Of a stretch of DNA of 64,000 nt, positions 34,276-40,615 are shown piece by piece. The notes under the pieces are model-generated. The model saw nothing but the letters and a program-made list of their open reading frames with translations, had not been told where the DNA came from and made no database searches. Positions within the stretch are counted from its first letter, which is position 1, and every line of letters starts with the position of its first letter. The DNA is from Octopus vulgaris (lineage: Eukaryota). Position numbers and translations under genes: made by a program. The DNA is taken from positions 16,740,001-16,804,000 of the forward strand of contig OX597825.1 of NCBI GenBank assembly GCA_951406725.2, given 5' to 3'.

Positions 34276-36624
34276 CAAAGAATACACCCCTTACCTCAAC
34301 AACCATTTTTTAGACAGAGGGGAAAAATACAAACACCACCGCTAACACAGACCCAAAATAAGAAAACAAAAATTATAAACCTCTCCAGCAAAACACTGAC
34401 ACCAACCCAAATCAACATCCTAGCAAGAAGTTTTGAAATTCACACCCACCCCAAGAACACCCAACCCCCGGAGGTCAAGGATGACGTTTCTGAATTCTGC
34501 AGAAAACTTCGCCTAACAGAAGCTTTGACAGATATTAACAATGGGGACGACTCATTGATCAGAAATAAAAGCAACTTCCTACCACCAAAAGGGAGAAATA
34601 AAACACTGGACGATTTCTGTAAACACATCCAGAGTCTCCCCTTTACCCCAAGCAAAACCAAGGTAAAATCCAATTTCAGTAAGGAAGAATGGGAAAACCT
34701 ACGTGACATACAACTGGATAAAAACCTCACCATCAAAGAAGCGGACAAAGGGAGTGCTGTGGTCCTTATGGACACGGAATTTTATAAACACCTAGTGTTC
34801 TCCATGCTTAACAATAACATTTTCTATGAGGTTATTAACAACTACAAACAGCAAAAAACAATCAGAAACCTCACCACACTCATACACCAACACGGTCAGG
34901 GACTCACAGAAAAAGAAAGGGATTATATCACCATTTTCAAATGCAAGCCCAGCCTTTTTTATGGCCTTCCTAAAATCCATAAAAACAAATACATCACCGA
35001 AGCCTGCAAACTCTCCACTGACATCCACATCAACATCAAAGCACCGGAGGACCTAAAACTAAGGCCCAACGTGGCTGGTACCTCCTGTGAAACACACCGC
35101 CTGAGTAACTTCCTAGACATCCTTTTGAAACCTTTCCTTACCCACATCAAAAGTTTCATTAGGGATGATCTGGACATGCTCAAACACCTCCCGAAAACAG
35201 TTAACGAGGAGGCACTCCTGGTATCCTTTGATGTCATCAACCTCTACACCAACATTCCACATGAGTATGGTATAGAGGCAATTGACTTCTGGCTAGAAAA
35301 ACACCCAGAGACATTCCCTGACCGCATTAACAAGTCTTTTATTACAGAATCTCTTAAGTTCATTCTGACAAACAATTTTTTTCTCTTCGACGACACACAC
35401 TACCGTCAAAAATATGGCATTGCGATGGGTACCAAGGCTGCACCAGTCCTTGCGAACCTCATAATGGGTTACTTCGAACTGTCACTCTATGAAATATCAA
35501 GCCAGAAATTTGGACATGTTTTCCACACCTACCTAATGGAAAACTGGAAAAGGTATTTAGATGATTGTTTCATCATATGGAAAGAACCTTATGAAAAACT
35601 CCTGGAATTCAAAACCATACTAAACAACATACATCCCAACATCCAATTCACTATGGAATTAAGCAAACATCATCTCCCATTCCTTGATCTCCTAATTATA
35701 AAAACACCTAAGAACCAAATCATAACAGACATCTACCACAAACCTACAGACTCACAACAATACCTCCTCTTTAGTTCATGCCACCCAAAACACACCAAGA
35801 CAAATATCCCTTTCAATTTAGCTAAAAGGGTATGCACCATTGTCTCGGATCCAAAAACACGAGAAATACGCCTTCAAGACCTCAAAAAAACACTATTACA
35901 ACGTCAATATCCCTCCACCCTTATAGAGTATGGAATAAAACGCGCCAAAGAACTAGACAACACTACACTGAAAACCACCCAACCTAACACCACACACAAC
36001 CTCAAAATACTTCCATACATTTCCACCCACAACCCCAAAAATATCGAAGCATACACCACAATCATACAAAACCTCAGTCTACTGCCAACAGACCCAAAAA
36101 TGAAAAACATTATAAATACACACAAAATCCTCAAATGCAAAAGGCAACACAAATCTTTAAAAAAACTCTTGACAAATGCCAAACTTCACACACCACATCC
36201 ACCCCCAACAGTAAAAAAATGTGCACGCTCAAACTGTGGTACCTGCCCCTTTCTACTTGAAGGCTCTGAATTTACCTTCAAACAAGGTACGAAGTTTAAA
36301 ATCAAGACTAACTTCTCCTGTTCCTCCGAGAACCTTATCTACGTTCTCACATGCGCTGGTTGCCAACATAATTATGTTGGACAAACGAGTCTCCCGTTAC
36401 GTAAACGAGTTACGGTGCATAAAGAACAAATAAATCTCCCGGAATACCGACAAATTCCACTGAGTGACCACTTAGACTCATGTGCTAAAGACTTAAACCC
36501 CAAATTCTATATATTCCCCTTCTACCAATGTAAAGACGGGATCACCACACAGGAGAGAATTAACAAGGAGAATCTCTTTATTGAAAAATTCCAAACACAA
36601 CTTAATATGCAAACTCCTCGTTGA
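34276..36624 (+). CDS. PLE reverse transcriptase / GIY-YIG endonuclease polyprotein (true start not resolved)
   Basis: The frame is open from 34276. Motifs: KIINLS, IKEADKGSAVV, FYGLPKIHK, SFDVINLYTNIP, GIAMGTKAAP, RYLDDCF, FLDL, CARSNCGTC linker, NLIYVLTCAGCQHNYVGQT...LRKRVTVH. Confidence 0.9.
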   Translation, partial: QRIHPLPQQPFFRQRGKIQTPPLTQTQNKKTKIINLSSKTLTPTQINILARSFEIHTHPKNTQPPEVKDDVSEFCRKLRLTEALTDINNGDDSLIRNKSNFLPPKGRNKTLDDFCKHIQSLPFTPSKTKVKSNFSKEEWENLRDIQLDKNLTIKEADKGSAVVLMDTEFYKHLVFSMLNNNIFYEVINNYKQQKTIRNLTTLIHQHGQGLTEKERDYITIFKCKPSLFYGLPKIHKNKYITEACKLSTDIHINIKAPEDLKLRPNVAGTSCETHRLSNFLDILLKPFLTHIKSFIRDDLDMLKHLPKTVNEEALLVSFDVINLYTNIPHEYGIEAIDFWLEKHPETFPDRINKSFITESLKFILTNNFFLFDDTHYRQKYGIAMGTKAAPVLANLIMGYFELSLYEISSQKFGHVFHTYLMENWKRYLDDCFIIWKEPYEKLLEFKTILNNIHPNIQFTMELSKHHLPFLDLLIIKTPKNQIITDIYHKPTDSQQYLLFSSCHPKHTKTNIPFNLAKRVCTIVSDPKTREIRLQDLKKTLLQRQYPSTLIEYGIKRAKELDNTTLKTTQPNTTHNLKILPYISTHNPKNIEAYTTIIQNLSLLPTDPKMKNIINTHKILKCKRQHKSLKKLLTNAKLHTPHPPPTVKKCARSNCGTCPFLLEGSEFTFKQGTKFKIKTNFSCSSENLIYVLTCAGCQHNYVGQTSLPLRKRVTVHKEQINLPEYRQIPLSDHLDSCAKDLNPKFYIFPFYQCKDGITTQERINKENLFIEKFQTQLNMQTPR

Positions 36625-37256
36625 TCAAACTTCCTTTCTCTACCTCACTCTTCATGGATGGACTAACACAAATATATAAAGATACCATGCATTCATCACT
36701 TCAAGCTAAAACTTATATTCTTTAAATATCATTTTTACTATTGTTGTTATTACTATCATTTTTATTATAAATGATATGACAATTTGAAATGCAATTGTCT
36801 ATGCAGATTTATATTATTAGAAAATAATATAAATAAAGTGTTAAAATCTGAAAGTTAAGTTAACAAGCAATTATATAAAAAAGATAATGCAAATGAAGCT
36901 AAAATGATAGTTTTATAATTTGGGTTTTATTGAAGAACTCAAAAGAGTTGTCTCCCCTTACTCACAACACAGGAACTGAAGAACCAGGACCACAATTACT
37001 ACTACTTCCTGTCCTGCAACATGCTGAATTTAACAACACAACACATCACATGCTCTTAATCCCTTTGGATCTTAACACCTCAAGGTAATTTTTTGGTAAA
37101 CAACCATAAAACTCAAGATACACAACGAACTCACAATGTATCGGAGAACTTATTTTTCAATTTTTGTACATTTTTATCATTATTCTTTTACAAAAAACAA
37201 TGCAATTTTCTTTTTTTCCCCTTTCTAATTTTTAAAAAAACTTCTTAAAACATAAA

Positions 37257-37297
37257 TATTCTTGACAAGTCATACAATGACGAAAACCGGTTGAATA
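37257..37297 (+). ncRNA. Minimal hammerhead motif, U3-A8 core variant
   Basis: TATTC-TTGACAA-GTCAT aca ATGAC-GAAA(A)-CCGG-TT-GAATA; one extra A after GAAA. Confidence 0.65.
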
Positions 37298-37436
37298 AAT
37301 ATATATTTATATATTTTATCATTTTCTCATTTTATTAAAATTTTCTTTCATTTGAGCATTCTGCATTTAAAAAAAAATATTTCCTTACTATATATATATA
37401 TATATATATTTTGTATATATATATATACATATATAT

Positions 37437-37637
37437 TTGAGGGACGTTCGCCTACACTCTTTTTCTCCCGGCGCACGCCACTTCCGCTCGGCCGGCCATT
37501 CCCTAGATGACATCTCAGTGTTTGGTCTCGCCCCCCACAATGGTCGCCCACTTTCCAGGCTCCACTTGGAGCAACGCTACATCTTCACCCTACAAACTAC
37601 TACCCCACACGGACTTAACACAGCCCCCTCCTCTTGA
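37437..37637 (+). pseudogene. PLE GIY-YIG C-terminal fragment
   Basis: RDVR...ARHFRSAGHSLDDISVFGL...RLHLEQRYIFTLQTTTPHGLN matches the typical Neptune-type PLE C-terminus (VARHF..HS..EQ..IF.L.T..P.GLN). Confidence 0.75.
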
Positions 37638-40487
37638 GATCCGCTTCTTTTTTTTTTTTTTCTGTTTCCCGGATACAACACCCACACACACACACCTACC
37701 TACCTCCCACACGCCTGTTCACACACACACATACGTAGACCCATCTACGTACATACATTCACACATTTAATCACACACACTTATAGACATACATGCACAC
37801 ACTAACATACAAACCAACATGCACATACACACACACATACATACATACACACACACATACATACTTGCACACACACACACACACAGACATACATACACAC
37901 ATACATACACACATACATACGCACATACATACACACACACTCATACACACACACCGCACGTACATACTTCACACACACACACATGCACACATACATGTAG
38001 GCATACACATACATACATACCCACACATGCACACCCTTACACTGAATGCACACACACATACACCTTTTTGTATCTCTTTTCTGCTTTCCGGTTTTGGCTG
38101 ATGGATCCTCGGTTCCCGCGTAGCGGGGCGTTCGAGGGCCTTTGCGCTCGCGCGCCTTGGCGCGCGCTGGGGGCTTGGTCGGCCCCATGGGCTTGCGTTG
38201 TATTGCTTGTGCGTTGTGTGCGTGAGCGCGCTTCGTGTGTGTGGGCTTGCTTCGGATGTGCGCGTGCGTATGTATGCATACATACCCACACACGAGCATG
38301 CATCCCTCCCCACATACATACACGCACACCTACTCACACACACACATACACACACACATACCCGCACACACACATATACATACATACACACACATACCTA
38401 CTTCAGACATACACACACACAGACATACACCCATACACTCACACTCACACGCATACACACACACATACACACGCACACGTACACATACACACACACACAC
38501 CTACATACATACATTACACTTGTACACACACACTTACATTCATACACACACACACCTACACAGCCATACCCTCACTCAGACACACACACCTACCTACACA
38601 CACACACAACACACACAGACACACACCCATACATACATCTACACACACACGCCTACACACATACATACATACATACATAAACACACACACATACACATAC
38701 ACACACATACGCACACACACATATACTTATACACATGCACACACACACATACATACATACACCCATACACATACACACACACATACCTACATACTCCTAT
38801 ACACACATACATACACACAGACATACACACATACACACTCACACAAACATACACACACACATACTTACACACACACACTCGCCTGCACGCGCACACACAT
38901 GCATGACAAACACCCATACACTCACACTCACATACGCACACACCAACATAAACACGCACACGCACACACACACCTACACTCCCACACACATACATACGCA
39001 CCTACATACACACACGCACGCATACACACGCACACACACGCATACACACATACATTACACACGTACACACACACCTACATACACATGCATACACACACAC
39101 ACACAAACATGCACGGACACACCCAGACATACATACATACACCTATATACACACACCCACACACACATACACACACACACACACACACACATACACGGAC
39201 ACACCCATACATACTTACATACATACACCTATACACACACGCCTACACACCTACATACACACACATGCATACACACACACACATGTACGCACATACACAC
39301 ACATATACGCACATACATATATACCCACACACATGCACACACACACACATACGCACATGCATGCATGCATGCACACGCGCACACCTACACGCATACACAC
39401 ACACACACTTACACATACATACATACACACACATACATACACCCATACACATACATGCATCCTACACACACATACATACACACTCACACATACATACACA
39501 CACACACACTCACTCACACACCTGTATGTACGCACACACACATGCACATACACACACTTCCACACACCCACACGTACATACATACACACTCATACACATA
39601 AACACACACACACACACGGACATACATCTACGCACACACATATATACACACATACTCACATACATTCATCGGACACACTGACACCCAGACATACACACAG
39701 ACACACTCACACATCCACACACATACATACTTACGCGCATACTCGTAGGCGCGCGCACACACGCGCTTGCGCCGGTTCGCGCACGCATACGCGCTGCATG
39801 CACCTCGCTCTTGGACCCGACGAGACCTTCCCGCTCGTTCCTGGGACCGTCGCTTGTCGTTGGGTTTTCCCACGCCCGTCTCCGCGGGACCACTCTTCCA
39901 TCTTCCCCTCGGCTGGAGTCCTTTTCCTTAACCCCCCCTTTTTTTGTTACACACACGCGCACACATATACACACCCACTCACACACACACATTGCTTAAA
40001 TATATACATTACTCTTACACACATTCAATCTACTCGCCATTAATACTACCACGACACTGGACACACACACACACTACTACTCAACACACGCTGGCACGCT
40101 ACATACGCCCCCACCCCTTCCCCTCCCTCCCTTCCTCCTTCCTTCATTTTCTTACTACTGACCACTGTCTGCTATGCCTACTACTGTCTCGCCCTACCTC
40201 ACACGCCTACACACAGACGCACACACTAACACATACATATATTTTTTGTTTTTTTATCTCGCCTCACACACACATACACACACGCACAGGCACACACTCA
40301 CACATACACACACATCTGTTGCGTTACCAACCCTGTCTCCACTCTTTTGGCTTTAAAAACCTACTTTGCTCTTGTTATCGTAAACTTCCGCCTTTCACCA
40401 TGTGGACTTCGTAAACACCAGTCGTTTTTTTCTCCATCTCCTGTTGCCCGCTTTGGGATCTTTCTTTCCTCTCTCTTCCTTCTTTAT

Positions 40488-40522
40488 GTTTCCGACGAAG
40501 AGCTCCGCTCGAAACGTCATAC
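40488..40522 (+). ncRNA. Minimal hammerhead motif (U4C core variant)
   Basis: GTTT-CCGACGA-A-GAGC tcc GCTC-GAAA-CG-TC-ATAC. Confidence 0.6.
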
Positions 40523-40615
40523 CTTCCTGCTTCCATATTTCCTGAGCGCCTATTAATAATAATACTGTAATTGTTCCACTGTTGTTGTGTTTTTTTGTTT
40601 TCCCGTTTGGATTAA

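Follow-up and report, generated by a model that had tools for sequence, protein, structure and literature searches.

Probable ADAR-type hyper-editing at the base of a Penelope-like element lineage in Octopus vulgaris

ADAR hyper-edits long duplex RNA by converting A into inosine, which reverse transcriptase (RT) reads as G. In avian leukosis virus and Rous-associated virus, ADAR-type hypermutation was described in which nearly 50% of A letters had changed to G (Hajjar and Linial 1995 and Felder et al. 1994, as summarised in PMC12925331), and restriction of LINE-1 by ADAR1 is reported in the same summary to be independent of editing. According to the hyper-editing results cited here from PMC5625713, A-to-I hyper-editing in metazoan transcripts is highest in octopus, and depletion of G upstream of the edited A is an ADAR motif across animals. 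A-to-I editing normally vanishes with the RNA. At the locus described here, it was apparently copied into germ-line DNA and then carried along by a retrotransposon lineage that stayed active. The locus lies in a window of 64,000 nucleotides of Octopus vulgaris DNA, to which all coordinates refer. A sequence-only reading of this window had pointed to a G-rich island inside a Penelope element and had taken the insertion itself to be a hyper-edited transcript.

The Penelope-like element and its G-rich island

The element copy at 37437-40615 (+) is young, Neptune-type and 5'-truncated, and it is bordered by (TA)n at both ends; longer copies of the family run upstream into an ORF with RT and GIY-YIG domains. 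The end of the GIY-YIG endonuclease frame was found at 37437-37637 (+; frame 37371-37637), and its C-terminus matched the ORFs of the longer copies. Because this frame end reads on the + strand, + is the transcript strand. The Penelope identity and the + sense strand were thus correctly assigned by the sequence-only reading, as evident from the GIY-YIG frame, the RT and GIY-YIG ORFs and the common 3' end. In the longer copies, a single ORF was read to contain RT plus GIY-YIG at its C terminus, with Pfam matches that were both under the curated cut-offs (RVT_1, E=0.00085; GIY-YIG, E=0.011), and open frames of about 1000 residues were kept in many young copies. Ahead of the GIY-YIG core, these ORFs contained a C-X4-C-X2-C linker of the CX2-5CxxC type, which is common to Neptune and Nematis between RT and EN, as outlined in PMC8557442. 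Additionally, the element 3' end was repeated 5' of the ORF as a pseudo-LTR-type partial tandem in four copies (L082, L087, L088 and L089), and the common 3' end was followed by (TA)n in 19 of the 20 fetched copies. These features are shared with the EN+ Penelope-like elements of the Neptune clade as presented in PMC8557442: RT followed by GIY-YIG, the CX2-5CxxC linker, tandem pseudo-LTRs and (TA)n targets. By its motifs and (TA)n targeting, the element would fit the Neptune type. In contrast to the Neptune elements in that description, the 3' region of the octopus lineage is CA-rich, measures 3 kb and contains an inverted duplication; the structural account cited here from PMC8557442 is of inverted 5'-truncated copies adjoining the pseudo-LTR.

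Directly upstream of the studied copy, 34276-37370 is occupied by another Penelope-like element, which is A/T-rich and belongs to a different family. Its open frame spans 782 codons and terminates in GIY-YIG (Pfam E=0.002); the studied copy was inserted in the (TA)n that follows this second element. At L082, the element is directly preceded by the 3' end of a further, related Penelope family, which resembles it in its hammerhead-like core and CA tract; the two are nested insertions into one (TA)n. In the terminal repeat region of the studied copy, a candidate motif resembling a minimal hammerhead core was present at 40494-40517 (+). This motif was conserved among the subfamily 3' ends and its fold was weak (z -0.99); no Rfam hammerhead match at E<=1 was obtained, and the only Rfam matches were microsatellite-driven and under the gathering score.

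Downstream of the ORF end, the composition of 37665-38055 (+) defined a CA/TA-rich tract that lies outside the predicted duplex. It is followed by arm 1, which is divided into two parts: a unique part at 38060-38192 (+), characterized by alignment to outgroup copies as an A>G hyper-mutated inverted duplicate, and a GT-rich part at 38193-38270 (+), whose base composition points to an inverted copy of a CA tract. A short palindrome (38264-38289; self-inverted match at 24 of 26 positions), retained in older copies, marks the 3' junction of the inverted arm. A CA-rich spacer of approximately 1.45 kb (38290-39730, +) would form the loop between the arms, and arm 2, corresponding to island 2, lies at 39733-39930 (+). 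Its assignment as the original sense-orientation segment together with about 60 nt of the preceding CA tract, likewise A>G hyper-mutated, rests on alignment and on its predicted duplex with arm 1. At 38074, the window copy alone has lost about 15 nt, which were present in all other young copies aligned.

The A-poor, G-rich patch itself was confirmed, as 38081-38268 contained 8 A, 49 C, 75 G and 56 T. A base-calling or assembly artefact was ruled out by at least 39 other loci that matched the island at 92-95% in both orientations (DNA search, best 40 of 435 candidates) and by contigs of four public runs. These contigs, drawn from three studies, showed no G>A difference of at least 10% over 38040-38259 (38260-38310 was left out as repeat). 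Five of the eight surviving A letters follow a G, as the sequence-only reading had counted, but this count is at chance level when taken alone (P=0.20) and circular if those G letters had been A.

We compared the island with the CA tracts flanking it, which were about 46% purine with very little G, after merging A and G and using 147 overlapping 188-nt flank windows. The earlier claim that the island resembles its flanks once G is reverted to A was not borne out, since the merged island fell outside the range of all 147 windows on five measures: T (56 vs 18-34), C (49 vs 63-82), TT (19 vs 0-7), purine-purine steps (29 vs 0-12) and purine/pyrimidine alternation (0.57 vs 0.76-0.96).

The island was also found to be a family trait. 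Of 29 copies selected solely on the basis of their ORF end, 28 had it, the remaining copy having a deletion, and a 25-letter motif search that allowed A or G at every G returned 57 matches, 51 of which were all G and six of which had one A; none had two or more. Relatives down to 60% identity were then included (protein search with the RT N-terminus, best 150 of 2796 candidates; 40 fetched). In a tree of 62 ORF ends, 44 copies split off from 18 copies without the island with a support of 100/99, and the island was present in all of the 44 but three, which have deletions. A single-copy event at the window copy is rejected by this family-wide distribution. Within the young family, all copies were indeed G-rich with no A-rich version, an outcome that the sequence-only reading had named as counting against editing; the sister subfamily, by contrast, carries an A-rich version, which is oppositely oriented. 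The exact form of that reading, in which the window insertion is the hyper-edited transcript of a flank-like CA-rich precursor, takes account of an A-poor, G-rich patch within a CA tract; given the family-wide island, the purine-blind statistics that differ from the flanks and a true precursor that is inverted, we regard its probability as negligible.

Origin of island 1

Five island-free copies (L130, L131, L132, L135 and L144) had a unique, sense-oriented segment of approximately 130 nt at the position that corresponds to island 2, and a search with this unedited segment gave at least 40 matches at 92-100% (all 40 scored). Its reverse complement aligned to island 1 of early island-clade copies, and in direct orientation it aligned to island 2 of the same group. 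Because both islands align to the unedited segment in opposite orientations, island 1 is, on these alignments, an inverted duplicate of the ancestral island-2 segment plus the CA tract before it. The first pointer to the inversion was a three-letter alignment (A=G) to 23 island-free sister copies, in which the reversed island scored 84-110 and the forward island only 49-77. The proposal that the precursor was CA-rich flank is thereby replaced: the purine-blind statistics are unlike the flanks, and the source was identified in the inverted ancestor of island 2. The related expectation that nearly all island G letters had been A also failed, since the 44 G letters in 38081-38192 of the window copy were traced to A (19), G (18), T (4), C (1) and insertions (2).

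Both junctions of the inverted arm were located in short palindromic or AT-alternating stretches, which suggests template switching as the origin of the inversion, with 38264-38289 as the likely switch point. An unrelated inverted duplication of 227 nt was observed in L155 (3799-4030 vs 2705-2932 in element orientation). It was 96% identical to its source, with eight substitutions and no A>G bias; therefore, inverted duplication arises in this family without hypermutation. No copy that has the island duplication with unedited arms was obtained by the junction motif (nine matches) or by a DNA search with arm 1 of L285, an early-branching copy (five matches).

Other inverted or GT-rich stretches were noted in the family. 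Four copies of one subfamily (L161, L256, L272 and L273) contained a third GT-rich segment of about 70 nt just 3' of arm 2 that ends in a short palindrome; its source was not found. L273 contained an additional private inverted stretch. A 39-nt reverse-complement resemblance (79%) between the 5' part of the L174 island and the 5' region of the ORF in L159 and L150-L153 was of low complexity and was rejected as probably due to chance.

A>G changes in the two arms

The two arms were compared with the unedited segment on the transcript strand by a three-way alignment of 131 ancestral columns, which included 26 of 32 outgroup copies, 12 of 14 copies for arm 1 and 10 copies for arm 2; the rest lacked anchors. 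In arm 1, 23 of 42 A letters had changed to G, with T>C at 0 of 29 T letters, no C>T, no G>A and nine transversions (A>T 6, A>C 1, C>G 1 and G>C 1). In arm 2, 12 of 29 A letters had changed to G, alongside four T>C, two G>A, no C>T and eight transversions. The A>T changes of arm 1 and the non-A>G changes of arm 2, which were counted in the later basal clade, weigh against the editing interpretation. Across the three-way columns, A>G was specific to arm 1 in 23 and to arm 2 in 11, and there was no column in which both arms agreed against the outgroup; therefore, the A>G polarity needs no root. The clustered A>G on the sense strand that the sequence-only reading had predicted from a mismatch table of family copies was thus borne out for both arms, when the sister-subfamily segment served as the reference.

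Over the same split, A>G affected 1 of 129 A letters in a control flank 3' of arm 2 and 0 of 99 in the last 600 nt of the ORF (arms vs flank, Fisher p=4e-18), and total divergence amounted to 13 of 539 columns in the ORF and 7 of 268 in the flank. In the CA tract before arm 2, the outgroup-to-clade comparison (27 of 32 outgroup copies vs 12 clade copies) revealed a rise in G per 30 nt from 0.3 to 4.0 and 6.7 and a fall in A from 14.7 to 11.0 and from 14.8 to 7.9, so that the A loss matches the G gain one for one. The gain extended over 60 nt only and then returned to background; this 60-nt stretch is the part expected to pair with the GT half of arm 1. The GT half, for its part, contained 3% A and 45% G, compared with the 20% and 30% expected for plain inversion (nine early copies, with L285 left out). 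Clustered A>G on the transcript strand with other changes rare, and alteration of both strands of a long predicted duplex with almost no A>G beside it, are the signature of ADAR, and both were observed. The clustered sense-strand G>A of APOBEC type was not, with G>A counts of 0 in arm 1 and 2 in arm 2.

These tallies bear on two further explanations. Inverted repeats are generally known to fold in DNA as well, and processes of damage or repair within a hairpin or a cruciform (deamination of single-stranded DNA, GC-biased repair or conversion between the arms) might therefore be invoked. Such processes should leave C>T, or equal A>G and T>C in each arm; arm 1 instead has 23 A>G with neither T>C nor C>T, and the unedited inverted duplication in L155 lacks any such bias, so we consider a DNA-level origin very improbable. 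Alternatively, the RT of the element could have misinserted dC opposite template A during nucleotide-pool imbalance or stalling in structured RNA, with no inosine involved. Strand-specific A>G is expected from this mechanism too, and A-to-G hypermutation during retroviral replication is in print (a title in the reference list of PMC3185545). However, the changes end at the duplex boundaries of both arms, 1-1.6 kb apart, where the spacer and flanks should have suffered as well, and A after G tends to escape; we judge misinsertion to be improbable, if slightly less so than the DNA-level processes.

Hyper-editing by ADAR calls for a long RNA duplex, and islands 1 and 2 are predicted to pair as one in the transcript. 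The predicted arm-arm duplex of the window copy reached -218 kcal/mol, compared with a shuffle mean of -145 and a minimum of -158; the corresponding values were -238 vs a mean of -144 in L257 and -249 vs a mean of -109 in L285 (20 shuffles each). The local folds of each island alone were modest (z -2.3 and -2.2). Four loci of the host genome exceeded the A_deamin cut-off, a domain match that would fit ADAR or ADAT.

L285, the early-branching copy, was found by the junction motif and showed A>G at 16 of 28 sites in arm 2 and 18 of 39 in arm 1 (34 of 67 in total), with only five transitions among 173 non-A sites and six transversions. In L289-L291, each arm had 16-24 A>G. G was common to L285 and L289 at 13 of 28 sites of arm 2, with two to three sites private to L285 and four private to L289. 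This combination of common and private edits suggests one shared round of editing followed by later private rounds; alternatively, the common edits would reflect independent editing with a shared site preference. The A letters after G were edited least in L285 (1 of 7 vs 33 of 58 elsewhere, one-sided p=0.04), and the other three tallies had the same direction (p=0.12, 0.12 and 0.14), although the sites were few and not independent. C and G were favoured as the 3' neighbour of the edited A, unlike the downstream-A enrichment reported for invertebrates in the motif data cited from PMC5625713. With A>G in both arms and almost none in the flank or ORF, and with half of the A sites of L285 changed, ADAR, the enzyme named by the sequence-only reading, is likely right.

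The most serious rival dispenses with an editing enzyme and assumes ordinary mutations, filtered over many master generations by selection for RNA pairing, under which a change from A-U to G-U would be tolerated. In accordance with it, the arms of the young family still pair far better than shuffles, and T>C, which turns G-U into G-C, leads the later inner branches of the island (34 vs 17 C>T). However, C>T, which turns G-C into G-U, would be equally tolerated and is common in these elements, yet it is entirely missing from both arms, and about half of the A letters changed while the ORF and the flank barely diverged. This rival is largely refuted by the rate and by the C>T absence, and we consider it unlikely as the origin of the G letters, albeit marginally less so than RT misinsertion; selection on pairing may have acted after the founding event.

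Descent of the edited lineage and comparison with known systems

We consider it likely that the transcript of an ancestral master copy folded back as predicted and was hyper-edited by ADAR, and that RT copied the inosines as G into the insertion that founded the lineage. According to this model, an inverted duplication of about 200 nt arose, as the alignments indicate, approximately 1-1.6 kb upstream of its source, and the two arms are predicted to have paired in the transcript. A>G then appears at 40-60% of the ancestral A letters, on one strand and limited to the two arms, with ADAR acting on RNA as the probable agent. Judging by its distribution, the edited state was inherited by all subsequent subfamilies, including the young one found in the window. 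At least one further editing round would have followed, because the early branches have most edits in common plus private ones. Later drift, mainly T>C, raised CpG further and blurred the pairing of the arms.

As evident from the subfamily ladder, approximately 72-82 G letters were kept in the island of most copies, and the sequence became increasingly GT-like. The inner-branch changes in the island, counted in 37 of 41 copies (four lacked anchors), were T>C 34, C>T 17, G>A 7 and A>G 5. Since these changes were mostly T>C with few A>G, and the G count was kept down the ladder, the G letters date from the clade base; on this count, they are ancestral to the island clade. An apparent cluster of nine A>G on one inner branch was a misalignment at a 19-nt tandem duplication and was gone after realignment. 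No private A>G cluster was present in any of 20 young sequences, and A>G was the least frequent transition in their CA tracts as well as at the ORF end and at the 3' end; there is thus no visible sign that the process continues in the young copies.

T>C was far above A>G on the sense strand among young copies (76 of 201 T columns vs 36 of 605 A columns, 37665-39730). Misreading of U by the RT, slippage within repeats or compensatory change at G-U pairs may account for this excess.

The proposal that a hyper-edited Penelope-like transcript was retrotransposed therefore stands in part. The clustered, strand-specific, ADAR-type A>G and its entry into DNA by retrotransposition were retained, but the event was ancestral and the precursor another sequence. 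The CpG density, which that reading had attributed to editing, has two sources: A>G changes in CA contexts at the founding event, and later T>C (34 vs 5 A>G on the inner branches).

On this reading, hyper-editing of the non-coding duplex did not halt the element, and ADAR would act on transposon RNA in cells contributing to the germ line. The unedited ancestor, the early intermediates and the descendants occur in one genome; therefore, the case is directly testable. A genome-wide search rule also follows, namely inverted repeats in which each arm shows A>G relative to an outgroup, with the strand being the same for both arms. More broadly and far more tentatively, ADAR might repeatedly cause heritable mutations in the retrotransposons of animals that edit heavily: germ-line ADAR would rewrite internal inverted repeats over transposition cycles, founding subfamilies and CpG-rich patches, and its fossils would be widespread and record past site preference. 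We regard this extension as possible but somewhat doubtful. In the openly accessible full-text literature, no account was found of ADAR edits that had become fixed in a lineage of endogenous retrotransposons, and an earlier description is possible.

Compared with the avian retroviruses summarised in PMC12925331, the octopus element is similar in that about half of the A letters changed to G in an inverted-repeat region of a reverse-transcribed RNA, and the inferred chemistry is the same. In contrast to those cases, as they are given in that summary, the octopus case concerns an endogenous Penelope-like element whose edited form is the inherited master of a subfamily ladder, and its genome still contains the unedited ancestor together with early intermediates. 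The hyper-editing of metazoan transcripts at inverted repeats, in the results cited from PMC5625713, likewise involves a long duplex formed with inverted sequence close by, A>G in clusters and avoidance of an upstream G. There, edited RNA is compared with an unedited genome, whereas the octopus G letters are in the DNA and are inherited. APOBEC3 editing of endogenous retroelements, as described in the portion of PMC2873906 used here, is also similar in that a host deaminase leaves clustered changes of one type in genomic copies. However, APOBEC3 acts on cDNA and produces G>A clusters, while the octopus arms show A>G limited to a predicted RNA duplex; the octopus lineage would thus represent an ADAR counterpart to APOBEC DNA editing.
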